Positions 1 through 15,167 of a DNA stretch of 64,000 bases are shown here, piece after piece; position 1 is the stretch's first letter; each line of letters starts with the position of its first letter. Source of the stretch: Planctomycetota bacterium. Lineage in GTDB: Bacteria > Planctomycetota > UBA1135 > UBA2386. Made by a program: the position numbers and the translations under genes. Under the pieces are notes generated by a model. That model saw only the letters and a list, made by a program, of their open reading frames with translations. It ran no database searches and had not been told where the DNA came from. Location: assembly GCA_035649575.1 (NCBI GenBank), contig DASRJH010000031.1, positions 2,746-66,745 on the forward strand. Reading direction: 5' to 3'.

Positions 1-2412
1 GTCGACTGGTCGTCCCGAAGTGTCCGCGTGAGGTCCGTCCGCGCGCATGATGTTGACCCTCAGCCGCGCCCGCAGTGTTCCGCTCGCCGCGCGCACCCGC
101 ACCGGTACGCTGGCCAGCGCCAGCGGGCGCACGTCGACGTGGATGCCTGCTCGCGTGGTGTCGAACGGGCCGAAGCGCAGCGGCGCGAACGGCGACGATG
201 CCGGTGGCGTCAGCGTGAGCGCGATCCGGCGACCGACGGGCTCGCGCGGCAGCGTGAAGCTCGCGCCGTCGAAGGTAACGGTGCGCGGGCTCGGGTAGGG
301 GACGAGGACGTCCTCGTCGACGTAGTCGATCTTCGCCTCGAACTCCTTCCAGGGTGTGCCTTCGACCGTCGCGACGGTGCCGGTGACGGGGCAGCCGTGC
401 AACTCGTCGTCGGTCGCGATGATCACGAGATCGACGCTGCCGGGTGGAACGTCGGGCCGGCGCAGCGTGAGGCTCTTCTCGGCCGGATCCGGCGTCACGA
501 CGACGGTCCACGCCGTCCCTGGATGCACACGCAGCTCGAAGCCGCCGTCCTCGCCGGTCGTCACGGCACCGCCGGTCGTGAAGCGTTCGCGCCGGCTGGG
601 CTCGGGCCAAGCCGCAGCGTCGACCGGCCCGCTCGACGCGTGCACGCGCGCGCCGGCGACCGGCTCGTCGCGCACGTTCCGCACGACGCCGCGGATCGTC
701 GCGAATCGTGGCAGCACGACACGCACGTCGGCGTGCGGTCGTTCGACCGTCGGCTCGATCCACACGATCTCGCTCGGCGGCTGGACCTCGGTGCTCGCCA
801 GGATGCCGTAGCGCGTGTGCTTCTGCAGGTCGGCCGCGAAGCAGCCGCCGGCGTCGGCCCGCAGCCACAGCGACTCCTCGTTGTGTTGCGGGCGCCGATC
901 GGCAGTGGCGCGCCAGACGCGCACGCTGGCGTTGCCGACCGGCCGGCCGTCGGCGTCGCTCACGACGCCGCGCACGGTGATCGCTCCGAGGAACGTCAGC
1001 ACGATGTCGGGCACGGGAACGTCTCGCGTGTTGACCTCCGCGACGAAGGTCAAAGCACCGCCGTCAGTTGCCTGGACCCGGTACGAGGAGTGCCGCACGA
1101 GCTGGACTTCGAAGCGGCCATCGTCGTCCGCGCGCACCGGTGCCGGCGACGGTGCGGCGCCCATCGTGCTCGTGTCCATGCCGTGGCCGGTCGCCGTGAC
1201 GATGGCTCCGGCCGCGCCTGAACCGTCGTGCCGCACGACACGGCCGCGCAGCGGTACCCCGGGTCGCAGGATCAGCACCGTGTCTTCGCCCGCGTTGCGG
1301 CTCCACGCGAAGTGCTCGGTCGTCATCGTGAGCTCGCGTTCGGCGCGCACGACGACGCAATCCAGATCGACGGTCGTCTGCACGCGTCCGAGGGCGTCCG
1401 TGCGCAGCAGGAACAGCTCGGGGCCATCGTGGCCCAACGAGTAACCACGTTCCTTGCCCGGCAGCTGCGTCTTGCTCGACCGCGGTCGCCAGCCGCGCAC
1501 GACGAGGTCCGCGAGCGGCCGCGCGTCGATGTCCTCGACCCGCACGCGCAAGCGCCACGGCGCCACCGTGCCGACGGCCCGTTCTGCGGCATCACTCGCT
1601 GCGCCGATCGACACGCCAAGAGCCGGCGCAGGCTCGCGCTCCGGTTCGGCCGGTCGACCGGGCTCGACCGGCGCGGCTGCGGCCGGCGTGACGGCAGGTG
1701 CCTGCGCCGCTTCCATGCGAGCGATCGGCGTCTCGCGCGACCAGGCGAACACGAGGACGAGCGCAGCAGCCACCGCGCCGCCGGCGAGGAGCTTGATGGT
1801 CATGAGGAGCCCCATGAGCGAGAAGGGGAGCACGGCAGCAGCTGCGGGCACCGGCGCGCGCGCTGCGAAGCCGCCCAGCGCACCGCGCCACGCCGCGCGT
1901 CCTCCCGGCCGTGCGTCGAGGCGGGCGCGCAGCCGTTCGAGGCCGCGAAACAGGCGTGAACGCACCGTGTCGTGCGGCACGTGCAGGCGCGCCGCGATGT
2001 CGTGCGTCGACAGGTCGCGCCAGAAGCGCAGCACGATCGCCGTGCGGAACGGCTCGTCGAGCTCGTGCACGGCGCGCGCGATCGCGTGCAGTGTCTCCGC
2101 CTGCTCGGCGATGCGAGCCGGATCTGCCGTGGCGTCGACTTCACTGCGCGCGACGCGCTGCTCGCGAGCCGAACGGCGCGCGTCACTGCGCCGCCAACGC
2201 GCGGCGAGGTGCGCCACGACGCCGGACAACCAGGGTCCCGCGCGCCCTACGCCGTCGCGTCGCTGCAGCGCCGCGACATACGCATCGTGCACGACGTCGT
2301 CGGCCGCACCGGCGTCGAGCAACGAACACGCGAGACGCCGCAACGATCGCCCTTCGGCGACGAGCCGGTCGGCGTCGAACGGAGCAGCAGCGGGATCGGG
2401 TTCGTCGGACAT
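1..2412 (-). CDS. ECF-type sigma-70 factor fused in frame to a TM helix and a large extracytoplasmic region with carboxypeptidase-regulatory-like repeats (3' end lies outside the window)
   Basis: Absent from the ORF track because the frame never reaches a stop before position 1. I checked every triplet of this frame from 1 to 2412 and found no stop. ATG at 2412, upstream in-frame TAG at 2461-2463. N-terminus MSDEPDPAAAPFDADRLVAEGRSLRRLACSLL..DDVVHDAYVAAL is region-2-like. EPFRTAIVLRFWRDLSTHDIAARLHVPHDTVRSRLFRGLERLRARL is a region-4 HTH. A hydrophobic stretch MTIKLLAGGAVAAALVLVFAW follows, then repeated units such as ITVRGVVSDADGRPVGNASVRVW and TIRGVVRNVRDEPVAGARVHA. Confidence 0.8.
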   Translation of the reverse strand, partial: MSDEPDPAAAPFDADRLVAEGRSLRRLACSLLDAGAADDVVHDAYVAALQRRDGVGRAGPWLSGVVAHLAARWRRSDARRSAREQRVARSEVDATADPARIAEQAETLHAIARAVHELDEPFRTAIVLRFWRDLSTHDIAARLHVPHDTVRSRLFRGLERLRARLDARPGGRAAWRGALGGFAARAPVPAAAAVLPFSLMGLLMTIKLLAGGAVAAALVLVFAWSRETPIARMEAAQAPAVTPAAAAPVEPGRPAEPEREPAPALGVSIGAASDAAERAVGTVAPWRLRVRVEDIDARPLADLVVRGWRPRSSKTQLPGKERGYSLGHDGPELFLLRTDALGRVQTTVDLDCVVVRAERELTMTTEHFAWSRNAGEDTVLILRPGVPLRGRVVRHDGSGAAGAIVTATGHGMDTSTMGAAPSPAPVRADDDGRFEVQLVRHSSYRVQATDGGALTFVAEVNTRDVPVPDIVLTFLGAITVRGVVSDADGRPVGNASVRVWRATADRRPQHNEESLWLRADAGGCFAADLQKHTRYGILASTEVQPPSEIVWIEPTVERPHADVRVVLPRFATIRGVVRNVRDEPVAGARVHASSGPVDAAAWPEPSRRERFTTGGAVTTGEDGGFELRVHPGTAWTVVVTPDPAEKSLTLRRPDVPPGSVDLVIIATDDELHGCPVTGTVATVEGTPWKEFEAKIDYVDEDVLVPYPSPRTVTFDGASFTLPREPVGRRIALTLTPPASSPFAPLRFGPFDTTRAGIHVDVRPLALASVPVRVRAASGTLRARLRVNIMRADGPHADTSGRPVD

Positions 2413-2613
2413 CGCGTCGTACAGTTCGTGCCCGCGACGGGCCGGGTTGCTCCCCGGAATCTACGAGCCGGCGCACCGGCGCGAATGCCGGATGCACGAG
2501 GGAAATGCCCGATGGCGGCCTCGGGGGGCATCGCCGCAGCCCCCCTACCAGTTCTCGCGCACTGCGGACGACCCTGGCGCAGCCGGTGGCGAGCCTTCAA
2601 TCTGACCCCTCGC

Positions 2614-3114
2614 ATGCCCGAACAGCCGCACATCCGCATTGCCCCACCGCGCGACGAGCCGGACTGGCGCGCAGCGCGCGACCTGCTCGTGGATTACTCC
2701 GAGTCACTCGGGTTCTCACTGACGTACCAGGGCTTCGAGGCAGAGGTCAGCTCGTTTCCAGGTGAATACGCGGCACCGGCCGGGGCGCTGCTGCTCGCAG
2801 TCGTCGACGCCACCGCCGCCGGCATCGTCGCGCTACGCCGGCTGGAGCCCGACGTCTGCGAGATGAAACGGCTGTTCGTGCGACCGGAGTTCCGCGGCGT
2901 GCGAACGACCGACGGCCTCTCGCTCGGCCGCGCGCTGGCGAGTGAGGTGGTGAACCGCGCCCGCGAGCTCGGCTACCGGAGGATGCGGCTCGACACGATC
3001 GCCGGCAAGATGGACGCGGCTATCGCGCTCTACCGCTCGATGGGCTTCGTCGAGATCGCACCCTACTGCGACAGCCCGGTGCCCGGGACGCTGTTCATGG
3101 AAAAGCGGCTATGA
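2614..3114 (+). CDS. GNAT family N-acetyltransferase
   Basis: C-terminal part of track ORF 1972..3114, starting from ATG 2614 (MPEQPHIRIAP...). Acetyl-CoA-binding-type motif CEMKRLFVRPEFRG..GLGRALASEVV and ALYRSMGF. The upstream part of the listed ORF is antisense to the sigma gene. Confidence 0.8.
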   Translation: MPEQPHIRIAPPRDEPDWRAARDLLVDYSESLGFSLTYQGFEAEVSSFPGEYAAPAGALLLAVVDATAAGIVALRRLEPDVCEMKRLFVRPEFRGVRTTDGLSLGRALASEVVNRARELGYRRMRLDTIAGKMDAAIALYRSMGFVEIAPYCDSPVPGTLFMEKRL

Positions 3115-3297
3115 TGCGGCGAGACCTGGCACACCGTGCAGGATCTCTTTGCCACGCACGCGAGTTCACCATCCGCGTGTGAATGGCCGGTGACGCCGGC
3201 GTGAAAACTACACGCGCTTCGACGACGCGATTCGTCACTGCGTCGGGGAACGCCCGTGCGTGCTCGGCGCCCAGGCGTAGGCTTGCTCGGCCACCCG

Positions 3298-4674
3298 ATG
3301 AGCACACGAACCATCCCGGTCGCACGCGACGATCGCCTCGAGGTCGACATCGAGGGCCTCGGCGACGGACCCGACGGCATCGCCCGCATCGGCAACTACG
3401 TGATCCTCGTGCCCGGCGTGCTCCCGGGCGAACGCGCCTACGTGCGCATCACGTCGGCAGCGCGCAAGTTCGGCCGCGGCGAGCTGCTGGCCGTGCGCAA
3501 GGCCGCTCCCGAGCGCGTCGCGGCGCGCTGCCCCCACTTCCTGGCCTGCGGCGGCTGCCATCGCCAGCACCAGGACTACGGAGCACAGCTGCAGGACAAG
3601 CAGCAGCGTCTGCAGCGCGCGATCACGTGGGCCCTCGGCGACGAAGCTCCCAAGGTCGCGCCGCCGATCCCCGCGGAGCCACCGTTCGGCCAGCGCCACA
3701 AGGTCGTCGTGCACCTGCGCAACACGCGCGACGAACGCCTCGAGGCGTGCTTCCATCGCCTGCGCAGCCCCGAGCTCGTCGCCGTGCGCGAATGCCCGGC
3801 GAGCCAACCGCGGGCGTGGGCGATCGCGATGGCTGCGGTGGCCCTGCTGCACGAGCTGCCGCACGGCGCATGGGATCCCGACTTCGCGCCGAACGACCTG
3901 CTGCGCAGCGTGCTCGTGCGCACGACGATGACGGGGCAGGCCCACGTCGTGCTCGTCGCGCGCCAGCCCATGATCCCTGGCCTCGAGCGCGTGCTCGACG
4001 ACCTGCACGAAGCCGGCGCGACGACGATCAGCTGCAACGGCAACGACGGCGAGTTCTCGCGCCTGCTCGGTCCACAGACCACGATCGTCTCGGGACCACC
4101 GCGCATCGAAGAACGGCTGCTCGAAACGCACTACCTGCTCTCCCCCGATACGTTCTTCCAGACCTCACCCGAGGGCGCCGAGCACCTCGTGCGCCTCGTC
4201 ACCGAGTGGCTGGCGCCGACGAGCCAGGACGACGTCGCGGATCTCTACTGCGGCGGCGGCCTGCTCACGCTGCCGCTAGCGCGCACGGCGAGGAGCGCGC
4301 TCGGCATCGAGCTCAGGACCGCGACGATCTCCGACGCCGAGGCGTCCGCGCGCAGAAACGGCCTGCGCAACGTGCAGTGGCGCTCGGGTCACGTCGAGAG
4401 CTGGCTGCGCGCGTGCCGCCACGGGCAGCTGCCCCGCCCCCACCTCGTCGCGATCGATCCGCCGCGCACGGGGCTCGAGCCCGTGGTCATCGACGAGCTG
4501 TGCCTGCTGCGGCCGCGCCGCATCGCCTATGTCTCGTGCGAACCACGCGCGCTGCAGCGCGACCTGCAGGCACTCGCGACTGCAGGTTTCCGCACGCGGT
4601 CCGTGCAGCCGATCGACATGTTCCCACAGACCGCCCACATCGAGGCAGTCGCGATGCTCGAACGCAGCACGTGA
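3298..4674 (+). CDS. rlmD: 23S rRNA (uracil-5-)-methyltransferase, RumA/RlmD family (TRAM domain, Fe-S cysteine cluster, SAM-dependent methyltransferase)
   Basis: MSTRTIPVARDDRLEVDIEGLGDGPDGIARIGNYVILVPGVLPGERAYVRI is TRAM-like. CPHFLACGGCHRQH is the Cys cluster. DLYCGGGLLTLPLA is the SAM motif. C-terminus YVSCEPRALQRDL..DMFPQTAHIEAVAMLERST. ATG 3298 chosen over the track start 3256. Confidence 0.85.
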   Translation: MSTRTIPVARDDRLEVDIEGLGDGPDGIARIGNYVILVPGVLPGERAYVRITSAARKFGRGELLAVRKAAPERVAARCPHFLACGGCHRQHQDYGAQLQDKQQRLQRAITWALGDEAPKVAPPIPAEPPFGQRHKVVVHLRNTRDERLEACFHRLRSPELVAVRECPASQPRAWAIAMAAVALLHELPHGAWDPDFAPNDLLRSVLVRTTMTGQAHVVLVARQPMIPGLERVLDDLHEAGATTISCNGNDGEFSRLLGPQTTIVSGPPRIEERLLETHYLLSPDTFFQTSPEGAEHLVRLVTEWLAPTSQDDVADLYCGGGLLTLPLARTARSALGIELRTATISDAEASARRNGLRNVQWRSGHVESWLRACRHGQLPRPHLVAIDPPRTGLEPVVIDELCLLRPRRIAYVSCEPRALQRDLQALATAGFRTRSVQPIDMFPQTAHIEAVAMLERST

Positions 4675-4684
4675 GAAACAGCGC
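4657..4684. repeat. attL-type core (direct repeat copy 1), covering the last rlmD codons and its TGA stop
   Basis: Exact 28-bp match to 10842-10869, read directly from the sequence. Confidence 0.85.
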
Positions 4685-4794
4685 GTAGGGCCGCTTTGCC
4701 CTCAGTTCTCAGCATTCTAGTGTTACGTGCAGGAGCGTGCAAGAGCGTGCACGAAGAGGCGCGAGAAGTGGACAGTTTCGGCCGATTTGGACAG

Positions 4795-5745
4795 TCACTG
4801 TCCACTCGGCGAGGACGGGCCACGAGCACCCAGTCGGTGCTCGATCACCGGTCGGAGATCCTTCGCCAGCTGCTCGGGCGTCTCCCACACGATGTGCAGC
4901 AGCTGGCGGGTATCGAACGGCAGCTTGCCGAGCTCGCCCTTGCGCACGGTCCAGATCACAGGTTTCCCGAGGCCTTCAGCGAAGCCGGCTTCGTACATGA
5001 CGCTGGCGCTAACGCCTGTAGCATCCGCAACCATGGCACGCGACCGACGAATCGCGACGAGGATGTGGGCGTCGATGCGATCGCCGTGCGCCGGTTCTCG
5101 ATCGACGCGCAGCGGTGAGTAGCCGGCACTGCGGATGCCCTTGCTCAGACCGTTGTCGTAGACGTCGCTCATAGAAGAATCGAACCACATGGCGACGAAG
5201 ACACGGTCGTTGCGCAGCGGCGACTTGTCGATCTCCTCCAGATGGAGGTAGCCGGCAAAGGTGAGTCGCACTCGGAGTAGGCCGTCTTGGGGGTCAATCC
5301 CGAGGCTCTCGAGGCGCCCCTGCTGGACGGCCGCGGCGACGAGGAACAGCATGTCCTCGCGTCCTCCCGTCCACACCAAAGCGGCATCGGTCTTCAGGTT
5401 CAGAGGAACCGCGTCGTTGAGAGTGTTGCTGCGCGACTCGACCAGACGGAGAAGCATGTCGAGCTGCTCGCGCACGCCATGCTCAGGCAGCCAGGATCTG
5501 AGACTGTCGAGCGATTCAGCGAGAGACGGGTATCCTGACTCGCGATTGTTCCGCTGCATTCGGAGCCACGCGGACAGGCGTGGCCATGCATCGAACCTGG
5601 GATCCCGTCCAAGCTCCTCCACCATGTCGCGGTGCAGCAAGAACAAGCCGCAGCGGGAACACTCGAAGCACTCGAGCGACAGGTCCGACGAGGATATGGT
5701 GTCCGCGGACTCCCAACAAACTGGGCACTTGCTGGGATGCTTCAT
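4795..5745 (-). CDS. Zinc-ribbon protein with a C-terminal nucleoside 2-deoxyribosyltransferase-like (NDT/TIR-like Rossmannoid) domain; candidate effector or toxin
   Basis: ATG 5745 overlaps the TGA of the upstream ORF (ATGA). MKHPSKCPVCWES...ECFECSRCG gives two CxxC pairs. C-terminus RVFVAMWFDSSMSDVYDNGLSKGIRSAGYSPLRVD...ILVAIRRSRAMVADATGVSASVMYEAGFAEGLGKPVIWTVRKGE...LPFDTRQ matches the FVAMxF...ADxT...YExGxAxGxGKPVI pattern of NDT-like domains. Confidence 0.75.
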   Translation of the reverse strand: MKHPSKCPVCWESADTISSSDLSLECFECSRCGLFLLHRDMVEELGRDPRFDAWPRLSAWLRMQRNNRESGYPSLAESLDSLRSWLPEHGVREQLDMLLRLVESRSNTLNDAVPLNLKTDAALVWTGGREDMLFLVAAAVQQGRLESLGIDPQDGLLRVRLTFAGYLHLEEIDKSPLRNDRVFVAMWFDSSMSDVYDNGLSKGIRSAGYSPLRVDREPAHGDRIDAHILVAIRRSRAMVADATGVSASVMYEAGFAEGLGKPVIWTVRKGELGKLPFDTRQLLHIVWETPEQLAKDLRPVIEHRLGARGPSSPSGQ

Positions 5746-5891
5746 TTGTCGCCAGCACTGCCCTCGCCCGGCATGGCCATCCGCCCAGGGGAATCGACGG
5801 CGCCTACACCCAGGCGCGCCCGCCGCACCCACGTCTTCGCGGTGCCGCGCGGGATGTTGAGCGCTGCAGCCTCGAGTGCGCGGGCGCTCAT
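5742..5891 (-). CDS. Small (49 aa) helix-turn-helix protein, excisionase/MerR-like (HTH_17-type pattern)
   Basis: ATG 5891 overlaps the antitoxin TGA (ATGA at 5888-5891), and its own TGA overlaps the next ATG (5742-5745). MSARALEAAALNIPRGTAKTWVRRARLG resembles the LGVSRSTVYRWVRxGRL-type HTH. Short ORF, so moderate confidence. Confidence 0.55.
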   Translation of the reverse strand: MSARALEAAALNIPRGTAKTWVRRARLGVGAVDSPGRMAMPGEGSAGDK

Positions 5892-6091
5892 GGCCTTGCC
5901 TTGCCTGCCTTCGTGGTCCTCGGCTTCGGCATGGTGAACGGCTTGCCCTCGAGTCGCTCGAAGTCGGCCAGCGGCACGAGGGCGAACTTCGGACGGCCGC
6001 GGTGCGTGCAGACCACGCGGGCGCCTGCGACGACAGCCTGCGCGACTTGCGTCAGATTCCACCGCAGTTCGTCGGCCGGGATGGTCTTCAC
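5888..6091 (-). CDS. Phd/YefM-family type II antitoxin-like protein (67 aa)
   Basis: VKTIPADELRWNLTQVAQAVVAGARVVCTHRGRPKFALVPLADFERLE follows the Phd/YefM consensus (xTVsaxEaRxNLxxxxxxVxxGexVxITRxGkPvAvLVsxxeyErL). GTG 6091 has AAGG 9 nt upstream. The longer track ORF (to 6526) has an Arg/Pro-rich, junk-like N-terminus. Confidence 0.7.
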   Translation of the reverse strand: MKTIPADELRWNLTQVAQAVVAGARVVCTHRGRPKFALVPLADFERLEGKPFTMPKPRTTKAGKARP

Positions 6092-6367
6092 TCGCCGCAA
6101 CCTTAAGGTTCCGCGGAACGCCGTCAATCCCCTGGTCGCGATTCCGTCTCGTCGCGCGCCCCCGCTTGGCGAATCCTCGTCGCCGGGGCTACTCTGCCGG
6201 CAGCACACCGCGGCCCGCTCGGCTTCACCCGGCGCCTGGGAACTGAGGTTGCCGGGCGGCCGCGCACCTCCCGGACGTAGGCATGCGTCGTGGTCATGTC
6301 CCTCCCTTGACGTCACGGCGAGGCCTGCTAGCTTCCGCGGCTCACAGCCACAAACGAGGAGGCACGA

Positions 6368-8335
6368 ATGATCTCGTCTCTGAGCGGTCTTGGTGCGGTG
6401 GTCTTGCTGGCTTCGCTGACCTCGGCGCAAACACCGCCAAACTACTATGTGAGCAACGGAGGCAGCGACACCAACCAGGGATCGATTCAGGCACCTTGGG
6501 CGACTCTCGGCAGGGTCCGGCAGCACGCGGATGACCCTACGAAGGGTTTCGCCGCTGGTGATTCAATCAATCTGGAACGCGGCAGCTCGTGGACCGACGA
6601 ACTGCTCATTTTGCCGAACCCAAGCCCAACTGCTAATTCGAATAGCGGCACTTCGGGCAGCAAGATCCGCCTGCAGGCCTATGGCGTTGGGCCGGCTCCG
6701 GTCATCAAGGGACTAGTTCAGCGCGTCGGCACCCGCGTCCAGCTGCGCAACGTCGAGCACTGGATCATTAGCGGTCTTCGCTTCGAAACTTCGCACCATG
6801 GGGTCCTCCTGTCCAACTCTACGACGCCCCACACGGTCCTTCACGGTGTCGAAGTGCACAACTGCTACTTCAAGGATATGGATGATCGCGGCAATTCGTT
6901 TACCAATTGTGGTATTCTGATCCACGGCTCGGCCCAGCAGGTTGACTGGCAAGACATCAGCATCAGCAACTGCATCTTCGACACTGTGTCAAACGGTGTG
7001 AGTAATGTTGGGTCCACCAACAACATCAGCATTGTCGACTGCGCGGCTTTTGGTGGCCTGTCCGCTGGCTTTTCACTTACCCATGTAGCGGGAGGTACTG
7101 TGGCTGGGTTCAGTGTTCGTGATGTTGGCGGAACCAGTTCGTTTGGGTCTTGTGGCGCCGCCTTGATCTTATGCGACGATGTAATAGTCACCGACTGCTC
7201 GATCTCCGGCGTCCGACACGATGGTGGCCTTGACGGCGTCGGATTTGATTTTGAGGCGGGCTGCAGGAACTGCACCTTGCGTCGCAGTTACATTTTCAAT
7301 AATGAGGGTGCTGGCATCATGGTCATGAGCGGGAACACCTTGCCGCTACAACACAATAGCTCACTCGTCATCGAGGATTGTCTACTGTACAATAACAACA
7401 CCCGTTATCAGCTTCCAGGGGCACCCGGCTTTCCCGCTGTAAATTCGGAACTTTTGTGCTTTCATGCGCTGAACAATGGCGTCATGAGAAACGTTGGTGT
7501 CTACAGGAGAACTACTACTACAGCTACCTACAACCACTTCAGCACCAATTGGGGCGGCTTCACAATAGAACCTAGTGTCATCACGGGTGATTACTGCGTC
7601 GGATGGAAACCTGTCTATGGAAAGTTCTCGCAGCTGGACGTTGGGGGCAATGGAAACATCGTCGGTGTGGAAGCTGGTAAGGTGCTTGTGTGGACCCGTG
7701 AATTCCTGGGCAATTGCTGGACCAACGTCACAGGTAACTTTGGCCCGTTCCTCAGCGCTAGTATCGGTTGCGACGGTGTGTTGTGGGCCGTTAAGAACGA
7801 CTTCTCCGTATGGGGGTACGATGGAGGCTTCAATTGGAGTACGCGAGGAACTGTGGCAATGAAACAGATTTCCGTCGGGCAACTCCCCCCGTTCACCCCT
7901 CCTCCCACTGTGATGGAAGACAATGTTTGGGGGATTGATACGCAGAGTACACCCCAAACCTGGAGATGGAACCAGTCGTTGTTGCCCACTCCTGCTTGGG
8001 AGTGGGTCTCTGGGAACACCACTCAAGTCGATGCTGCCGCAACTAGAGGCGAAGGTGCCTGGGCTGTTTTTGCATCCCAACAGCCGCCATTGGTCTATCG
8101 TATCCAGAATCCTCCCACCCAAACATGGCAGCAGGTAACTACACAGCCGCTCGACCAAGTGTCCAGCACGAACTTCAATGCTGCCGTCGGGGTATATGGA
8201 AATGCCGTCTGGCTGACAAGGGATGGGGGAGTGTCATGGTCTCAGCTTCCGGGCCAGCTAACTCAAGTCGCCGAGGGAAGTGATGGTGCGCTGTGGGGGT
8301 TGGACGCGAACGGGCACGTTTGGAGATTCAATTGA
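6368..8335 (+). CDS. Secreted right-handed beta-helix (pectate-lyase-fold-like) protein with a C-terminal tectonin/TECPR-like beta-propeller repeat region
   Basis: GGAGG lies 7 nt before the ATG. Signal peptide MISSLSGLGAVVLLASLTSAQ. N-terminal YYVSNGGSDTNQGSIQAPWATL plus periodic N/C/I-rich rungs (VHNCYF, ISISNCIF, ISIVDCAA, VIVTDCSI, CTLRRSYIFNNEGAGI). C-terminal W-rich repeats (VLWAVKNDFSVWGYD, NVWGIDTQ, NAVWLTRDGGVSW, GALWGLDANGHVWRFN). A/T is frequent at third codon positions, unlike neighbouring genes. Confidence 0.8.
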   Translation: MISSLSGLGAVVLLASLTSAQTPPNYYVSNGGSDTNQGSIQAPWATLGRVRQHADDPTKGFAAGDSINLERGSSWTDELLILPNPSPTANSNSGTSGSKIRLQAYGVGPAPVIKGLVQRVGTRVQLRNVEHWIISGLRFETSHHGVLLSNSTTPHTVLHGVEVHNCYFKDMDDRGNSFTNCGILIHGSAQQVDWQDISISNCIFDTVSNGVSNVGSTNNISIVDCAAFGGLSAGFSLTHVAGGTVAGFSVRDVGGTSSFGSCGAALILCDDVIVTDCSISGVRHDGGLDGVGFDFEAGCRNCTLRRSYIFNNEGAGIMVMSGNTLPLQHNSSLVIEDCLLYNNNTRYQLPGAPGFPAVNSELLCFHALNNGVMRNVGVYRRTTTTATYNHFSTNWGGFTIEPSVITGDYCVGWKPVYGKFSQLDVGGNGNIVGVEAGKVLVWTREFLGNCWTNVTGNFGPFLSASIGCDGVLWAVKNDFSVWGYDGGFNWSTRGTVAMKQISVGQLPPFTPPPTVMEDNVWGIDTQSTPQTWRWNQSLLPTPAWEWVSGNTTQVDAAATRGEGAWAVFASQQPPLVYRIQNPPTQTWQQVTTQPLDQVSSTNFNAAVGVYGNAVWLTRDGGVSWSQLPGQLTQVAEGSDGALWGLDANGHVWRFN

Positions 8336-9259
8336 TGGGTCATCCGGAAGTCGCGTTGGTAGCTGAGGCCAACTGATCTTTGGTTGAACTACTGCGCCGA
8401 AACGAGCGACGACGTAGTGCCAGTCCCAACGGAACGAGCCGGCGCCGTCGCGGCGGAATCTGCTGGGCACGAACTGAAGCCGGCTCGACGCCCGCACGCT
8501 TGGCACGAGAATCTTCTCCTCGTCGACACCAAGGTCCGGAATTGGCTCCTCTGGCGGGCCTGGATCAGCGGGCTTGGGGATCACACGCTGCAGCTCGAGC
8601 ACAGCCTTCGTCACGGTGTCGCTGCACAGTTCGGGATCGCGCTCGAGTTCGCGCAACGGCGCAGCATTGCCGCCGACCGCGAACACGGCGGCGATGGCTT
8701 GGGGCACGAACACACGGAAGCCAGTCCGCAGACCCCACACGAGCTCAAGTCGTTCGTCGATCGGGCTGCGACGGATCACGGGCTCGCTCTGGACCGTGAC
8801 GCCATGGACCTCTCGACGGGCTCGCTTCCGCCCCGTCCGTCTTTCCCACTCCGCCGTCAGGCGCTCGCGAGCAACTTCTGCAGGATGTCGAAGCCGGTAG
8901 CGAAACGGAGAGCGCGCCGAATCATCGGTTCGGTCGTCGTCGCCCGGATCTTCGGCATCAACGCGCTCATGCTGGTCGCGTCCGGTGGTCCTGATGTAGC
9001 CGGGCCATGGCGCGGCGCGCGCGCTGATCTGGCTCCCCGTCCATTGGTTTTCATCGTCTGGATACCGCTCCCACGGCGCGAGCGACTCCAGCATGCACAA
9101 CAGATCGGCCACAGCCCGAGCCGGCGTCGGCCGCACGAGTTCGCTGCCGTCGTTGTCGACGAACACCTCGAACCCTTCCGGCAACGCCGGCCGCGCGATC
9201 GCTGCGGGCTGCGGTGCCGGCACCGTCGCGGCCCCGCGCCTCTTCTTGCTGTTCGCCAT
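8258..9259 (-). CDS. Hypothetical protein immediately downstream of the integrase (island-borne)
   Basis: Coding-like composition with no recognisable motif. ATG 9259 (MANSKKRRGAATVP) preferred. The last ~45 codons run antisense through low-GC DNA and overlap the 3' end of 6368..8335 by 78 nt, so the native C-terminus may have been replaced. Confidence 0.5.
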   Translation of the reverse strand: MANSKKRRGAATVPAPQPAAIARPALPEGFEVFVDNDGSELVRPTPARAVADLLCMLESLAPWERYPDDENQWTGSQISARAAPWPGYIRTTGRDQHERVDAEDPGDDDRTDDSARSPFRYRLRHPAEVARERLTAEWERRTGRKRARREVHGVTVQSEPVIRRSPIDERLELVWGLRTGFRVFVPQAIAAVFAVGGNAAPLRELERDPELCSDTVTKAVLELQRVIPKPADPGPPEEPIPDLGVDEEKILVPSVRASSRLQFVPSRFRRDGAGSFRWDWHYVVARFGAVVQPKISWPQLPTRLPDDPSIESPNVPVRVQPPQRTITSLGDLS

Positions 9260-9365
9260 CGCGTTCGCCTCACGCAATCGCCTGCAAGGAAGTGTCGGTG
9301 GCAGCCGCGCAGGCGAGCACGACCCGGCGCGGGTGCTACCCGCACCGTTGCCACCGACGGTGAAT

Positions 9366-10667
9366 CTAGCTCGCTCCCACGATCTGGTCGAGCACGCGCA
9401 CCGCGCGAACCTGCTCGGCGGCGCTGCTGTGATAGTAGCGGCTCGTCGTCGCGATGTTCTTGTGGTTCGCCGCGGCCGACGCGGCCGCGATGCCCGCCTC
9501 GTTCACGACGCGCGTGACGGCGGTATGGCGCAGTTCGTGGTTCGTGAAGTCCTCGACGCCGGCCTTCGCCGCTGCGATCTTCACGTGAAGCCGATACGCC
9601 ACGGTGTTCCAACGGTCGTTGAAGCGTCGCCGCATCGGTTGCTTGCGACGCCGGCCGGCCGCGTGGCGGTCGGCCATGCGCTTGGCCGGCGAGAAGATGA
9701 AGGCCTTCGGCAGCGCCGGGAAGCGCTCGAGGATCGCTTGCGCCTCCTTGCCGAGCAGGTAGCGCGTGACATGCCCCAGGTGCTCGGTCTTTGCGCCCTC
9801 GACCGTGTAGATCCAGGTGCCGTTGGGGCCGTTCTTGTTGATGTCCGCCCAGCGCATCAGGCAGACGTCGCCGGGCCGCATCGACGTCTTCAACTGCAAC
9901 CGCATCATCGCCGCGACCTGGCTGCAGCAGTGCGCGGCGACCAGCTCGATGTCTTCCACGGGCACCGCGCGCCGGGCTCGCTTCCCGTGCTCCGGCCGGC
10001 CGGAGCACTGGCCGGGCTTCAGGTTCGACAAGCTGGCGCAGTCGAGCCACACCGGCTTCGGCACGAGCCCGCGCGACTCGCCCCACCTCAGCATGTCCTT
10101 CACGAGCCAGACCCATCGGTTGATCGTCTTGCGCACGTGGTCGGGGTAGTCGGCTTCGATGCGGTCCCGCCAATGCACCAGCAGGGCTTCCTTCAGCCGG
10201 CGCACCGGCACGGCGCCGGCGAACTCCTCGAACAGCGTCAGCACGCGGCGAGTCAGCCGCCGGCGTGACGTCTCCTTGCGGTGCTTCAGGAAGCGGCCCG
10301 TGGCGACGATCCACGCCTGGTACTGCGCCGACAGCTCGCGCACCGTCAGTATCGCCTCGTTTGCAGTGATCGCACGCGGCCCGATCGGCTCGCGTCCATT
10401 CTCGTTCCACTCCTCGAGCAACTCCGCGTAGCGCTTGTGCGACGCCGGAGTGCCCCAGACGCCGAGGTAGTGCGTCTTGCCGTTGAGCCGCACCCGGGCT
10501 TGCCCCGAACTGTGCTTCGTCATCTTCGGCAACCGAGACGTCGCGCCCCTTGCCTTCTCAGTCGTCGCCGTCGTGCCGTTGTCATCCGCGCGCATGCCGG
10601 TGCAGTCGAGCGAATCGACGGCACACGAGGGCGCGCCTTCGCGTCCCTTCGAAGTGATCTTGACCAT
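9366..10667 (-). CDS. Tyrosine-type site-specific integrase
   Basis: N-terminal ARVRLNGKTHYLGVWGTPASHKRYAELLEEW is typical of the integrase arm-binding/SAM-like region. Catalytic elements MRPGDVCLMRW (Arg), HELRHTAVT (HxxR) and NHKNIATTSRYYH (His...Tyr). Alternative starts at 10595 or 10523 are possible. Confidence 0.9.
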   Translation of the reverse strand: MVKITSKGREGAPSCAVDSLDCTGMRADDNGTTATTEKARGATSRLPKMTKHSSGQARVRLNGKTHYLGVWGTPASHKRYAELLEEWNENGREPIGPRAITANEAILTVRELSAQYQAWIVATGRFLKHRKETSRRRLTRRVLTLFEEFAGAVPVRRLKEALLVHWRDRIEADYPDHVRKTINRWVWLVKDMLRWGESRGLVPKPVWLDCASLSNLKPGQCSGRPEHGKRARRAVPVEDIELVAAHCCSQVAAMMRLQLKTSMRPGDVCLMRWADINKNGPNGTWIYTVEGAKTEHLGHVTRYLLGKEAQAILERFPALPKAFIFSPAKRMADRHAAGRRRKQPMRRRFNDRWNTVAYRLHVKIAAAKAGVEDFTNHELRHTAVTRVVNEAGIAAASAAANHKNIATTSRYYHSSAAEQVRAVRVLDQIVGAS

Positions 10668-10794
10668 CGCCTTGGCCTCGATTTGGACAGTCGACTGTCC
10701 ACTTTGGAGGAGGCGGTGCTACGCCTCGCTTCTCACTCCACGCGCAACGCGCGACGCGGAACCGAGCTGCGTTCGTCGTTCTGGAGCACGTCGC

Positions 10795-10859
10795 AGCTCG
10801 ACATGTTCCCGCAGACCTGCCACGTAGAGGCCGTGGCGTGCCTCGAACGCAGCACGTGA
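10795..10859 (+). pseudogene. Diverged duplicate of the rlmD 3' end (island-side arm of attR)
   Basis: Encodes ..LDMFPQTCHVEAVACLERST* versus the genuine ..IDMFPQTAHIEAVAMLERST* at 4618-4674. There are three amino-acid differences in the last 19 codons, and no methyltransferase body lies upstream. Confidence 0.7.
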
Positions 10860-10869
10860 GAAACAGCGC
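10842..10869. repeat. attR-type core (direct repeat copy 2)
   Basis: Exact 28-bp match to 4657-4684. Confidence 0.85.
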
Positions 10870-10896
10870 CGAAAGCCGGTTCACCCTCGTCACCCC

Positions 10897-11418
10897 TCAT
10901 GAGGAACCACTCTTCGTCGCGTGGTGCAGGCCGGCGATCGCATGCGCGACCTCGGCCGCCAGACCTGCGGCAATCCCCCCCGGGCCATCCTCACTGGTGC
11001 TCGGCTCCAGCTTGCCGTGGGTGTGTTCGACGGGCGCCTGCGGTGCGGCTTTCAGTTCGCCATCCTGGAGCCACGCGAGGAACCGCTGGAACAGGAACCC
11101 CTCGTCGATCGTGTTCCCCATCGCCCAGAAGATGCCCACGCCGAGCGCCTTGGCCAGGTTCGGGCGCCTGGCGACCGTGAAGACGTAGACCGCGACCGGA
11201 TCCGCGAGAACGAACGACTGCCCTCGGAAGGACGGCAGCGTCCTGAGCCCACCGGGAACCGGCCACGGCATCCGTTGCGCCAGCTTGTAGACGGGACCGA
11301 ACTCGTCGACGCGGAGCGCCTTCACGACGTGCCCAGGCCCATCGTGTCGATCGGGCGAGTGCGGAGGGAAGAGCTCATCGGAGAGCCCTCCCTCCCGGCG
11401 TGCGAACTGAGGACCCAC
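10897..11418 (-). CDS. Hypothetical protein
   Basis: Non-junk composition (FVLADPVAVYVFTVARRPNLAKALGVGIFWAMGNTIDEGFLFQRFLAWLQDGE). No motif recognised and the start is uncertain. Confidence 0.45.
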   Translation of the reverse strand: MGPQFARREGGLSDELFPPHSPDRHDGPGHVVKALRVDEFGPVYKLAQRMPWPVPGGLRTLPSFRGQSFVLADPVAVYVFTVARRPNLAKALGVGIFWAMGNTIDEGFLFQRFLAWLQDGELKAAPQAPVEHTHGKLEPSTSEDGPGGIAAGLAAEVAHAIAGLHHATKSGSS

Positions 11419-11627
11419 AGGGGCGAGAACGATCGGCAGCGCCTGCTGGCGAGTGCTGCGTCGTATGGCTGCGTGACCGACCCATTGCGAAGCTCCTGTG
11501 CAGGGGGTTCGCTTGGGTTGCCTTGGTTCTTCAACACCGCGGCGGCCGATTTCTTAACTGGTGAAGGAAAGAAACTCAGCGACGCCCAGGCGGGCATTCG
11601 ATGGCGGCGAGCGGCCGCGGAACGTTC

Positions 11628-13859
11628 TCACCGCGCCACGCACTGGGCTAGAGCAGTCAGGAAGTCCTCGGCCCAGGTGATCGCCGTCGTGCGGCCGACC
11701 GCGGCGAGCAGCCGCGCGTGGCGCGAGCGCCGCTCGTCGCCGTCCATGCGCAGCGCGCGGTCGAGGTCGCGCGCGAGCCCGTCGCAGTGCCAGGGATTCG
11801 TCAGCACCGCGTCGCCGAGCTCGACAGCGGCGCCGGCAAACCGCGACAGCACCAGCACCCCCGGATTCGCAGGATCCTGCGCGGCGACATACTCCTTCGC
11901 GACGAGGTTCATGCCGTCGCGCAGCGGCGTCACGTAGCCGACCGCGGCGGCGCGATACAGCAGCGCGAGCTGATCGTGGCTGAACGCGCGATACAGATAC
12001 CGGATCGGCACCCAGTCGGCGTCCCCGAACTGGCCATTCACGCGGCCGACGATCAGCTCGACGCGTTCGCGCTGTTCGACATACTCCGGCACGTCCCCGC
12101 GCGACGGCACCGAGATCTGCACCAGGCTCACGTGGCGCCGCCACTCCGGCTGCAGCTCGAGCAGCCGCGCGAACGCGGACAACCGCTCGGGGATGCCCTT
12201 CGTGTAGTCGAGGCGGTCGACGCCGAGCACCATCTTGTTCGGCGCGATCGCGCGCATCAGCTTGTCCACTTCGTCCATGCTCGCGGCGTCCGCGGGCTCC
12301 TGGAAACGCTCCGGGATGATGCCGATCGGGAACGCGCCGACGCGCGTCCGGCGGCCGCGGAGCTCGACGACGTCGTCGCCGACGCGCGTGCCTGGCAGCG
12401 CCGCGGCGCACTCGCGGAACGCGCTCGCGTAGCCGGGCGTGTGGAAGCCGATCAGGTCGAGCGACAGCATCGCGGTGAGGAGCTGCTCTGCCCACGGCAG
12501 TACGAAGAACACGTCCGGACCGGGGAACGGCACGTGCAGGAAGAGACCCAGTGGACCGGTGTGGCCGCGCCGCCGCAGCCGGTCGCCGAGCAGCAGCAGG
12601 TGGTAGTCGTGGATCCACACCGCGTCGCCGGCGCCGACGAGCAGCTGCGCGGCGTCGGCGAAGCCGTCGTTCGCCTGCTCGTACGCGGCCCAGTCGCCGT
12701 CGGCGATGCGCACACGTGTCGGGAACGAGTGCAGCAACGGCCAGAGGGCGCTGTTGCAGAAGCCGTTGTAGTAGTCGCGGCGCCACGCTTCGGGCAGGTC
12801 GACCCAGGCGAGCTCGGGTTGCCCGGTGTCGTCGAGCCCGAACTCGGTGATGCCATCACCCGGGGCCGTGCGGCCGCTCCAGCCGAGCCAGATGCCCTGG
12901 CGCGCGCGCAGCGCCGGCTCGAGCGCGGACACGAGCCCACCGACGTTGCGCTTGCCGCCGTCGCCGTGGTTGTTGGAGCGCAGCTCCGGCAGCCGGTTGG
13001 ACACGACCAGCAGCCGGTACGACCTCGCGGCGGCGGCCGGCCGGCGCTGTACGGGCACGGGCATGGGCTGCAGCTCCGCGCCCGGCGTGCCGCCGCGCAC
13101 CGCGACCAGCGAGCGCAGGAACTGCCGCGCCTCGCGTGGAGCGTCGAGCCGCCAGCGCGCCGCGGTCGCGCGGGTGCGGTCGTGGCCGACGGCGATCGTC
13201 TCGCCGTTGCCGTGCACCGCGCGGAACATGTCCTCGTCGGTCACGTCGTCGCCGATCGCGAGCAGCCGGCACCCGGCGCCGGCCTGGTCGCGCAGCCAGG
13301 CCAGGGCAGTCGACTTGTCCATGCGAGAGGGCCGCACCTCGACGACGCGCGCACCTCGCAGCTCGTGGAACGACGGATGCGACCGCAACCACGCCTCGAT
13401 GCGGCTGCCCACCTCGACCAGCGCGGCTTCGCGGTCGGCACGTGCGATCGCGCGGTAGTGGAAGGCCACCGACCACGTCTTGCGCTCGACGATCGCGCCG
13501 GGATGGCGCCGCGCTGTGCGTTCGAGCTCTTCGGCGAGGTCGGAGACCTCGTCGCGCGAAGCGCCGGCGAACTCCTCCCACGCGCCGCGGCCGCGCCGCC
13601 ATCCACCGTGCTCCGCGACGAGCGCCAGACCGTCGACGCCGCCGAAGAAGGTCTCGAGCTGCTGGCGCGGCCGGCCGCTGACGATGGCCGCGACGATCCC
13701 CGGCGCGCGAGCGACGTCCGCGACGAGCTCGAGCAGTTCGGCGTCGGGGCTCGCTTCGGCCGGCGTCGCCGCGAACGGCAGCAGCGTACCGTCGAGGTCC
13801 ATCACGACGCAGAGCGGCGACCACCGCGCGAGCGCGAGCCAGTCCTGCGCAGCGGTCAC
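11628..13859 (-). CDS. otsBA: Bifunctional trehalose-6-phosphate phosphatase (N-terminal HAD, OtsB-like) / trehalose-6-phosphate synthase (C-terminal GT20, OtsA-like)
   Basis: N-terminal VVMDLDGTLLP (HAD DxDGT) and AIGDDVTDEDMF. GT20 part RLLVVSNRLP..GGLVSALEP..WLGWSG..FCNSALWPLLH..IHDYHLLLL..LGVDRLDYTKGI..DGMNLVAKEY. Confidence 0.9.
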   Translation of the reverse strand: MTAAQDWLALARWSPLCVVMDLDGTLLPFAATPAEASPDAELLELVADVARAPGIVAAIVSGRPRQQLETFFGGVDGLALVAEHGGWRRGRGAWEEFAGASRDEVSDLAEELERTARRHPGAIVERKTWSVAFHYRAIARADREAALVEVGSRIEAWLRSHPSFHELRGARVVEVRPSRMDKSTALAWLRDQAGAGCRLLAIGDDVTDEDMFRAVHGNGETIAVGHDRTRATAARWRLDAPREARQFLRSLVAVRGGTPGAELQPMPVPVQRRPAAAARSYRLLVVSNRLPELRSNNHGDGGKRNVGGLVSALEPALRARQGIWLGWSGRTAPGDGITEFGLDDTGQPELAWVDLPEAWRRDYYNGFCNSALWPLLHSFPTRVRIADGDWAAYEQANDGFADAAQLLVGAGDAVWIHDYHLLLLGDRLRRRGHTGPLGLFLHVPFPGPDVFFVLPWAEQLLTAMLSLDLIGFHTPGYASAFRECAAALPGTRVGDDVVELRGRRTRVGAFPIGIIPERFQEPADAASMDEVDKLMRAIAPNKMVLGVDRLDYTKGIPERLSAFARLLELQPEWRRHVSLVQISVPSRGDVPEYVEQRERVELIVGRVNGQFGDADWVPIRYLYRAFSHDQLALLYRAAAVGYVTPLRDGMNLVAKEYVAAQDPANPGVLVLSRFAGAAVELGDAVLTNPWHCDGLARDLDRALRMDGDERRSRHARLLAAVGRTTAITWAEDFLTALAQCVAR

Positions 13860-14023
13860 GGTGACTCCATGGGGCGCGCCTTGCTCACTTCATGACCTGC
13901 AGGTGCTCGACGGCGTGTGAACTGCCACTGTACCCGCGGACGCCGCAGCCGGCCCCCGCCCAGGGTTCGCGCCCGATACGGGGACGCTAGCCCGACCGGG
14001 ACTGGCCCAGTAGCCTGCGCCGG

Positions 14024-15157
14024 ATGAACGTCCACTCTGCCATACTCGCGGCTGCCCTGCTCGCGGCCACGCTGCTCGCCGCCTGTTCTTCGATGCACTC
14101 ACACTCCAACGTCCCATCGCGTCACTTCGGCGTCGACCAGAGCGGCCGCCCCGCAACGCTCTGGACCATGCGCGCGGGCCGCGTCGAGGTGGACGTCACC
14201 GACTACGGTGCCACGCTGGTCGCCGTGCGCGCGCCGGACCGCGCCGGGTTCCTCGGTGACATCGTGCTCGGCTTCGACGACGTCACGGGCTACGAGTCGG
14301 GCGACAACCAGTACTTCGGCTGCACGACGGGTCGCGTGTGCAATCGCATCAAGAAGGGCGAGTTCACGCTCGACGGCTACACCTACGTGCTCGCGACCAA
14401 CAACGAGCCGAACCACCTGCACGGCGGCGCGCAGAGGAGTCTCGACAAGGTGCACTGGCAAGGCGAGGTCGTCGAAGCGGGCAGCGCGCGCCAGGCCGTG
14501 CGCTTCACCTACCTGAGCAAGGACGGCGAAGAAGGCTACCCGGGCAACCTGCGGATCTCCGTCACCTACACGCTGTCGTCCGACGATTCGCTGCGGATCG
14601 ACTTCGCCGCGACGACCGACCGCCGCACGCCCGTCAACCTCACGAACCACGCGTATTGGAACCTCGCTGGTGCAGGCGCTGCGACGGTGCTCGATCACAC
14701 GCTCTGCATCGATGCGCCCAGCTACACGCCGACCGACGCCACGCTGATCCCGACCGGCGCGATCTCGCCGGTGCTCGGCACGGCGCTCGACTTCGCGAGG
14801 CCGGTTCCGATCGGACTGCGCATCGACCAGCTCGTCTCGACGCCCGCGCGCGGTTACGACCACAACTACGTGTTGACCGAGGCCGACGGCCTCCGGCGGG
14901 CGGCCGTGCTGGCGCACGAAGCGAGCGGCCGTTCGCTGACCGTACAGACCACGGAACCCGGACTGCAGCTCTACTCGGGCAACTACCTGCGCGGGCAACG
15001 CGGCAAGAGCGGCAAGGCCTACGCGAAACACAGCGCGATCTGTCTCGAGCCCCAGCACTTCCCGGACAGCGTGAACCAACCGCGGTTCCCGAACACGATC
15101 CTCGAGCCCGGCAGGGTGTACTCGTCGACGATGCTGCTCACGTTCGCGGCCGAGTGA
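14024..15157 (+). CDS. galM: Aldose 1-epimerase (galactose mutarotase), lipoprotein-type signal
   Basis: MNVHSAILAAALLAATLLAAC is lipobox-like. GRVCNRIKKGEFTLDGYTYVLATNNEPNHLHGG, EGYPGNL, NLTNHAYWNL and ICLEPQHFPDS are typical mutarotase motifs. Confidence 0.85.
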   Translation: MNVHSAILAAALLAATLLAACSSMHSHSNVPSRHFGVDQSGRPATLWTMRAGRVEVDVTDYGATLVAVRAPDRAGFLGDIVLGFDDVTGYESGDNQYFGCTTGRVCNRIKKGEFTLDGYTYVLATNNEPNHLHGGAQRSLDKVHWQGEVVEAGSARQAVRFTYLSKDGEEGYPGNLRISVTYTLSSDDSLRIDFAATTDRRTPVNLTNHAYWNLAGAGAATVLDHTLCIDAPSYTPTDATLIPTGAISPVLGTALDFARPVPIGLRIDQLVSTPARGYDHNYVLTEADGLRRAAVLAHEASGRSLTVQTTEPGLQLYSGNYLRGQRGKSGKAYAKHSAICLEPQHFPDSVNQPRFPNTILEPGRVYSSTMLLTFAAE

Positions 15158-15167
15158 GAGGCGGCAC

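Follow-up and report, generated by a model that had tools for sequence, protein, structure and literature searches.

Phages 21 and e14 integrate in icd of Escherichia coli, phage Phi-m46.1 is a rumA/rlmD-targeting element of Firmicutes, and tandem accretion at one attachment (att) site is known from arrays of the cis-mobilizable element (CIME)/ICESt1 type and from composites of the staphylococcal cassette chromosome (SCC) at rlmH. Genetic tools for Planctomycetota are few, and, to our knowledge, hardly any integrative elements of this phylum have been characterised. The tyrosine integrases of streptococcal integrative and conjugative elements (ICEs) target housekeeping 3' ends in 30 of 73 cases, for example rplL, guaA, lysS, rpsI and rpmG (PMC4701971). 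In Firmicutes, rumA is targeted by ICEs as well as integrative and mobilizable elements (IMEs) with a single large serine recombinase; their direct repeats measure 2-21 bp, and rumA and the recombinase gene swap their 3' parts, with changes of C-terminal sequence, length and frame in both proteins (PMC4701971). Here we analyse a 64,000-nucleotide stretch (the window) of contig DASRJH010000031.1, from a Planctomycetota metagenome-assembled genome (MAG), in which an island occupies the 3' end of rlmD. We are largely confident that a tyrosine-integrase island inserted in the 13-bp sequence TCGACATGTTCCC of this gene, brought an element-encoded rlmD end and displaced the resident one, and that an older member of the same family lies downstream.

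The island, its empty site and the junction core

The island was first recognised from a perfect 28-bp repeat, CTCGAACGCAGCACGTGAGAAACAGCGC, which is 28/28 identical at 4657-4684 and 10842-10869, includes the rlmD stop codon in its left copy and brackets about 6.2 kb. It occurs twice in the window (none expected from shuffles) and twice in the whole 6.0-Mb genome even with three mismatches allowed, which disposes of the idea that it is a common dispersed sequence. The remaining observations of the first-pass annotation also hold: a tyrosine integrase lies beside the right repeat, and the frame left of that repeat ends in a diverged rlmD C-terminus (..DMFPQTCHVEAVACLERST before its stop, versus ..DMFPQTAHIEAVAMLERST in rlmD itself). 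Direct repeats that flank an island on both sides and are unique in the genome are expected of a gene-restoring integrative island, and are present here. No large serine recombinase spans the att site, and the tyrosine integrase gene ends 130 bp from the repeat. No tRNA genes were found in the window. G+C content is 70-75% in the flanks versus 51-66% within the island. The 28-mer is the best-preserved part of a longer imperfect repeat: similarity between the island ends begins 44 bp to its left, at TCGACATGTTCCC, and fades about 25 bp beyond it. The distance from the left to the right copy of this 13-bp core, 6,185 bp, is the length of the inserted DNA.

A metagenomic contig could have been misjoined through such repeats, and the source genome, a MAG, is split into 349 contigs; in two related genomes (G004, G097) contigs indeed break at the rlmD-end site. 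We nevertheless give this explanation almost no credence. The perfect identity spans just 28 bp, below usual assembly k-mers, the contig is continuous across both junctions, the integrase protein is recorded on two contigs (the longest 73 kb), and the structure agrees in detail with independent elements.

The target gene encodes the 23S rRNA U1939 C5-methyltransferase. Its open reading frame (ORF) scores 304 bits against TIGR00479 (cut-off 183.55) and contains an N-terminal TRAM domain (1.7e-12) and a U5-methyltransferase domain. The true start is likely the ATG at 3298, which gives 458 aa; relatives have 458-461 aa. The ORF aligns to the C-terminal end of E. coli RumA (1UWV), with the VSCEP and DMFPQT.H.E motifs on C389 and E424, respectively, and E463 opposite E424. 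In RumA, E424 is the general base of the reaction and belongs to motif VIII (PMC1904294).

An empty site in a related genome, set as a check beforehand, was found on a 125-kb contig (L119). Its RlmD protein (P0022) is 91% identical and its rlmD gene 91.5% identical at the nucleotide level, the island is absent, and rlmD runs directly into the sequence found in the window behind the right copy; the downstream side is ~90% identical (aligned blocks in Table 1). A three-way alignment locates the switch between the partners. Left of the 13-mer, L119 matches the left junction (attL) at 29/30 and 92/100 positions and the right junction (attR) at only 10/30 and 28/100, whereas right of it the matches are 29/30 and 64/68 to attR versus 21/30 and 52/68 to attL. 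At the gene's 8.5% divergence, ten or more differences in 30 nt have a probability of 1.1e-4, and a hand calculation from the same figures gives ~6e-4 for the nine observed. Moreover, RlmD ends in QTCH(V/I)E..ACLE.. in 4/4 other genomes of the genus, which is the right-copy type (C..V..C).

Judged by this pattern, the partners switch inside TCGACATGTTCCC (rlmD codons I-D-M-F-P) and not in the 28-mer, 44 bp further downstream, where the first-pass annotation had placed the crossover. A switch inside the 13-mer implies that the end now fused to rlmD (..AHIEAVAMLERST, stop) is element-derived and that the copy beside the integrase (..CHVEAVACLERST, stop) is the displaced resident end. The reverse polarity had been proposed at first, with a native left copy, a right copy that represents the mimic of the gene end in the element's attP, derived from another host, and exchange inside the 28-mer. 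It would account for the 28-mer being the only long perfect identity between the ends, and the consensus-like sequence of the right copy might in principle be that of a generalist mimic. We consider it very improbable: in L119 the end is of the right-copy type, after the core the left copy differs at 9/30 nt in a gene that is otherwise 91.5% identical, and all four other genomes of the genus read QTCH..AC as well. In addition, stop-region identity between the two copies is missing in G097 and in the L104/L117 pair (see below), and the string AVAMLER goes with element-type tails in G010 and L117.

Several other candidates were set aside. A crossover near CTCGAAC, suggested by native-like attL copies before it, was dropped after L119 and the finding that AVAM travels with element tails. 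Two rlmD-like fragments (G006:C41, G001:C369) were rejected as att relics; each is a paralogue's gene end truncated by the edge of a contig, and the sequence upstream of it looks like a gene. The genome G004 (rlmD 86% identical at the protein level) was uninformative for an empty site, as its contig stops 8 nt past the stop codon (G004:C144, L030, positions 1-15; TGAGAAGCGGC). A contig end at this place is expected if a repeat-bounded element is present there too.

Related elements, arm motifs and the integrase clade

Four other elements, with integrases 56-78% identical to that of the window, share the layout. In G097, from another genus of the same family, the integrase is 70-78% identical, the value varying with the alignment. 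An rlmD fragment of 19 codons is found upstream of int on contig C32 and the full rlmD on contig C77, where it is followed by homology to the left end of the window's island (window 4685-4806). Identity between the two rlmD-end copies of G097 is confined to their left 40 bp, CGCCGTTCGACATGTTCCCGCAGACCGCGCACGTGGAAGC. In the stop region, the copy beside int is of native type (..ERAT, stop, CGGCCGCGCGCC; compare G102 of the same genus) and the rlmD-side copy of element type (..ERSS, stop, GAAACAGCGCCGAAGGCCGGTTTGCCCTCGG), so a crossover in the stop-codon region is impossible there. The tail of the latter is 27/28 identical to the 28-mer. L104 (integrase 58% identical) shows int, the P arm, NMFPQTCHVESLACLELRQ with its stop, the native spacer and the start of galM, in this order, and L117, from the same metagenome, is the matching left junction with element tail and P' arm. 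L105 (56%) contains the start of the same arrangement. In L103 (57%; an 1863-bp Logan contig from SRR31843402), int, P arm, mimic (LFPHTEHVEVLATLERKA, stop), tail and P' arm are contiguous and collinear with the attP rebuilt by joining the two island ends of the window; L103 represents a tandem junction or else an element in excised or replicating form. No relatives of the island proteins were found near rlmD in G002-G004, G008, G010 and G020.

In all five elements, similarity to the target gene begins at TGTTCCC. This boundary bears on a further possibility, namely that the island came from an island-bearing donor by homologous recombination, with crossovers inside rlmD and downstream and without action of the integrase (Int) in this lineage. 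MAG populations recombine, and the left switch point lies in a conserved stretch usable for exchange. On the other hand, the right copy and the following DNA are the recipient's own (95% to L119), which would require a right crossover immediately within the end of the island, and the same 13-mer/TGTTCCC boundary in five elements of different hosts is expected of a fixed recombinase core and not of random homologous exchange. We judge this route improbable and infer that Int catalysed the integration.

Both island ends carry conserved motifs outside the core (Table 1). Each of the five copies of TGGACAGT in the 64-kb window is located at an end of the island (4769 and the two palindromes), and the 2-nt-spaced palindrome, the tail pattern and the 10-bp-phased array of three GTGCA repeats (4727-4751) occur genome-wide only at these ends. 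The arm motifs are conserved in G097, L103, L117, L111 and L113, and the palindrome type was found upstream of int in all relatives checked, tRNA-targeting ones included. TGGACAGT and the GTGCA repeats may be arm-type or regulatory sites in both arms. The tail of ~45 bp after the stop (TGAGAAAC..GGCCGGTTTGCCCTC.GTTCTC.GCA.TCTAG; window 4672-4712) is an imperfect palindrome 50-90 bp from the crossover and the best-conserved part of the element family, above the coding mimic (G097, L103, L117, G020, G010, L111, L113). It has no match in Rfam at E<=1, folds no better than shuffles (z -0.4 to +0.4), and contains no terminator or promoter consensus that we could find.

The integrase matches PF00589 with an E value of 4.6e-15 (56 bits, cut-off 27) and phrog_1 with 1.5e-36. 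R264, K293, H377, R380, H402 and Y411 are invariant in the alignment, their catalytic roles being assigned by motif and not by structure. In a maximum-likelihood tree, the window integrase forms one clade with P0002 and P0004, its nearest metagenomic counterparts, and with G097, L103, L104 and L105 (support 100/98), every member of which targets a RumA-family gene wherever the context can be read. In the sister clade (L120, L121) the same palindrome lies upstream of int; a RumA or tRNA fragment was not found there. Outer-clade integrases adjoin tRNA-Leu (G082), tRNA-Val (G020) and tRNA-Pro (G061, L123), and integrase relatives of at most 48% identity lie beside tRNA genes or at other sites. 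This survey of phylogeny and homologue sites had been among the checks proposed at the outset. A tblastn search against 50,697 phage records gave no match to the integrase; a related-locus search with the integrase alone gave none either, and an alignment-based scan returned only loci already found. The named relatives are Planctomycetota or Phycisphaerales MAGs.

Collection scans detected the tail pattern behind rlmD in G010, G020 and G097. In L111 (JAEUHT010000287.1) and L113 (BJHM01000007.1), both Planctomycetota MAGs, the pattern and the P' arm together follow a TRAM-less paralogue of the RumA family, which shares 27% identity with the window RlmD. The mimic of L103 is of this paralogue type. 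In L113, a peptidase S46 gene follows 1.1 kb further on, so that this copy is a short remnant.

These comparisons indicate how the locus most probably formed. The 6,185-bp island of this Phycisphaerales (Planctomycetota) genome would have inserted at the 3' end of rlmD through site-specific recombination by its tyrosine integrase, with strand exchange within TCGACATGTTCCC, in the codons of the near-invariant DMFP motif. Right of the core, attP would have carried a version of the last 16 codons that contains the catalytic Glu, then the stop and the conserved tail; with such a gene-end copy in attP, rlmD stays intact with the element-encoded C-terminus ..AHIEAVAMLERST. The former end, ..CHVEAVACLERST, would have been pushed 6.2 kb downstream, beside the integrase. 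Accordingly annotated, rlmD still looks full-length and functional with its catalytic Glu kept, and its residues ~457-472 (P457 to the stop), that Glu among them, would be supplied by the element. An element that encodes these residues would explain why frame and FP.T.H.E residues are kept in the element-borne copies, and would account for the position of the core on GACATGTTCCC, a sequence almost unchanged among the rlmD genes of the family. The element-borne copies drift mostly at synonymous sites; between L103 and L111, the differences within FPHTEHVEVL are synonymous (read by eye).

Older layer, cargo and mobility

An element-type stop region with tail, GAAACAGCGCCGAAAGCCG.., is present on the window's displaced end as well as on the resident end of L119, and resembles the G097 element tail at 27/30 nt (our own count). 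In the plain arrangement (G002, G003, G008, G102, L104), rlmD ends in ..ER(A/L).. followed by the stop and CCTGC.., and galM begins within 13-15 nt. L119 retains a decayed native end (..GAGGCGCTGGCCTGCCTCGAACTGGCTCGGTAG, EALACLELAR, stop) directly before galM. Of the original rlmD end, the window has only a 16-nt relic there, which matches GCGCAGTAGCCTGC..ATG of the empty-type relatives. The segment between the displaced end and this relic is absent between rlmD and galM in the five genomes of plain arrangement, and a similar scar without arm motifs was seen in G010 and L118. We read 10811-14007 as the probable remains of an earlier element of this family whose integrase was lost, with the displaced end as its left junction (old attL), into which the present island would have integrated. 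The older scar and the native relic imply that the rlmD end was overwritten at least twice, leaving three generations of rlmD ends in a row. The perfect 28-mer would then reflect common descent of two element-derived tails and not the trace of a crossover.

Orf173 is common to the window and L119. In the fused otsBA gene, the trehalose-phosphatase part is N-terminal and the trehalose-phosphate synthase part C-terminal. Four genomes of the genus contain no close copy of this gene; its segment (11606-13984) is absent from L119, where ~250 nt separate the orf173 homologue from galM, and represents either a gain in the window lineage or a loss in L119. L119 in turn has a 79-aa ORF without a family match (11476-11715) between the element-type tail and the orf173 homologue, which is missing from the window. 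Upstream of rlmD, synteny with L119 stops at once (window 1-3299 versus L119 1-10005, no match); the first 3.3 kb of the window encode a sigma-factor fusion and a GNAT acetyltransferase.

Some observations weigh against this reconstruction. L119 is 8.5% diverged: the junction was mapped from a pattern of differences, with no isogenic pair, and is resolved to a 13-bp interval and not to cleavage positions. The G097 copies share a 40-bp identity that, taken alone, is compatible with a crossover somewhat further right, and a crossover in the 13-mer leaves the 28/28 tail identity unexplained unless common tail ancestry or later gene conversion is added. The element origin of 10890-14007 is read from its bounding scars; a mobility gene is missing from the segment, and L119 lacks otsBA. 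Among the island ORFs no excisionase was recognised, and present-day mobility is read from intact parts only.

The genes of the island are listed in Table 1. A three-gene operon begins with the Phd/YefM-family antitoxin and ends with a zinc-ribbon/TIR-like protein that is a candidate toxin or defence effector. The secreted beta-helix/tectonin gene has 51-58% G+C and a G+C content at third codon positions (GC3) of 0.62 versus ~0.9 in host genes, and looks like a secondary insertion. The island in which this block is nested has 63-70% G+C, and the genome 70-75%. Orf339, directly behind int, has homologues in the same place in G097 (38%) and L104 (40%) and ten relatives among 1.84 billion representatives; the family shares the motifs PWERFP..WT.SQ and AAGG..EPLRELERD..H.DTV. 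Its last ~45 codons enter the low-GC block and run antisense to the beta-helix gene's end. It has no family match, and its AlphaFold model (mean predicted local distance difference test score 67) has no PDB match at E<=0.001.

No relaxase, coupling protein, type IV secretion system or other transfer gene was found among the island ORFs with Pfam, NCBIfam and PHROG, nor any phage structural, packaging or replication gene; PHROG matches were restricted to the integrase, the antitoxin and proteins of unknown function. As no transfer, replication, phage or excisionase gene was recognised, the island is a minimal integrative element. It may still be able to excise. The int ORF is intact with its catalytic residues, both cores are identical, arm motifs are conserved on both sides, and the closest relative is without the island, which makes the insertion recent. 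A fixed relic, integrated as described and no longer mobile, is a possible but doubtful alternative that concerns present-day mobility and not origin; the lack of a recognised excisionase, relaxase and replication gene, the low-GC block nested inside the island and the neighbouring older element, which shows that family members decay in place, all speak for it.

Table 1. Features of the locus, with window coordinates and, for aligned blocks, their counterparts on contig L119
Feature	Window position	Strand	Remarks
rlmD (23S rRNA U1939 C5-methyltransferase)	3256..4674	+	472-aa ORF; TIGR00479, TRAM, tRNA_U5-meth_tr
Left copy of 13-bp junction core TCGACATGTTCCC (attL)	4613..4625	+	codons I453-D-M-F-P457; strand-exchange interval; from three-way alignment with L119
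Element-borne last 16 rlmD codons and stop (4626-4674), then tail GAAACAGCGCGTAGGGCCGCTTTGCCCTCAGTTCTCAG	4626..4712	+	contains left 28-mer; homologous to sequence behind rlmD in G097, L117, G020 and to contiguous attP-like contig L103
P' arm motifs	4727..4804	+	GTGCA x3 at 10-bp spacing (4727, 4737, 4747); TGGACAGT half-site (4769-4776); palindrome TGGACAGTCACTGTCCA (4788-4804)
316-aa zinc-ribbon protein, C-terminal TIR-like/nucleoside-2-deoxyribosyltransferase-like domain	4795..5745	-	PADLOC PDLC00733 1.7e-9; phrog_16139 2e-30; weak PF05014
49-aa mini helix-turn-helix (HTH) protein	5742..5891	-	weak HTH matches; ATGA start/stop overlaps with both neighbours
Phd/YefM-family antitoxin, 67 aa	5888..6091	-	first gene of three-gene operon; PF02604 1.8e-9; TIGR01552 8.4e-10
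Secreted right-handed beta-helix and tectonin protein	6368..8335	+	PF13229, PF19193
orf339, conserved integrase partner	8258..9277	-	directly behind int
Tyrosine integrase, 433 aa	9366..10667	-	130 bp from right 28-mer; PF00589; phrog_1
P arm motifs	10680..10748	+	palindrome TGGACAGTCGACTGTCCA (10684-10701), 17 bp upstream of int start codon; GCGCAAC (10742-10748)
Right copy of 13-bp junction core (attR)	10798..10810	+	from three-way alignment with L119
Displaced resident rlmD end ..QTCHVEAVACLERST, stop (to 10859), and element-type tail GAAACAGCGCCGAAAGCCGGTTCACCCTCG	10811..10889	+	contains right 28-mer
Probable remnant of older insertion	10890..14007		orf173 (10897-11418, -); fused trehalose-phosphatase/synthase gene (11628-13859, -)
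Relic of original rlmD end (CAGTAG, ..Q and stop) and native rlmD-galM spacer, CAGTAGCCTGCGCCGG	14008..14023	+	directly before galM (14024-15157)
Aligned block, rlmD body	3300-4684		L119 10006-11390
Aligned block, right copy	10798-10878		L119 11319-11399; 95% over 81 nt
Aligned block, orf173	10883-11605		L119 11736-12469
Aligned block, galM onward	13985-15993		L119 12724-14728

Comparison with known systems

On a broader scale, we lean towards a scenario that we judge as one whole. An integrase lineage of Planctomycetota would have exchanged tRNA genes as targets for the motif VIII (DMFP) codons of RumA-family genes, both rlmD and the TRAM-less paralogue, and its elements would act as C-terminus cassettes that overwrite the last 16 codons including the catalytic base. 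The element-encoded end would often be fixed as a scar after decay, giving the present-day rlmD C-terminus a mobile-element origin in a good fraction of Phycisphaerae; serine recombinases of Firmicutes would have settled on the same motif by convergence. The locus itself is probably a natural record of repeated overwriting of a housekeeping catalytic C-terminus by mobile DNA, and a case in which tyrosine and serine recombinases of unrelated phyla apparently converged on the same conserved rumA/rlmD stretch. The 13-bp core, the conserved arms and the defined integrase clade also provide a cleanly mapped attB/attP system for Planctomycetota. The mechanism as such is textbook, and the value of the locus lies in annotation, comparison and possibly tool-building.

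The 3' end of an rRNA methyltransferase gene had been called a less common target in the first-pass annotation. This needs qualifying: rumA/rlmD is a known serine-recombinase target in Firmicutes, and tyrosine integrases often use housekeeping 3' ends (PMC4701971). With the streptococcal ICEs our locus shares a tyrosine integrase at one end, direct repeats with the 3' end of a gene, a target left intact with an element-supplied end, and integrases that cluster by target. It differs in its target, rlmD or a paralogue of the RumA family, in its host, which belongs to the Planctomycetota, and in the supplied segment, which encodes a catalytic residue; moreover, the island has just 6.2 kb, without recognised conjugation, mobilisation or phage genes, and its integrase is distal to the rebuilt gene. 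The Firmicutes rumA elements use the same gene and the same region (3' motif VIII codons), and likewise show hotspot behaviour with serial insertions. Their recombinases are, however, of an unrelated class, whereas here the recombinase is of the tyrosine class and the C-terminus is restored in frame.

As in tRNA-gene islands, the 3' part of the target is carried by the element, and the sister and outer integrase clades have the same palindrome upstream of int. Here, in contrast, the target is protein-coding and a displaced fragment lies beside int, where tRNA-gene islands have the intact tRNA gene. The older layer is reminiscent of CIME/ICESt1-type or SCC arrays, in which a second element enters the junction of the first and displaced gene ends mark the boundaries; at rlmD, two layers are seen, and the older unit lost int and most of its right junction. 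Taken together, the kind of mechanism is known, that is, a tyrosine-integrase island that restores a housekeeping 3' end, and what is new is the clade of the integrase, the host phylum and, for this target, the class of enzyme.

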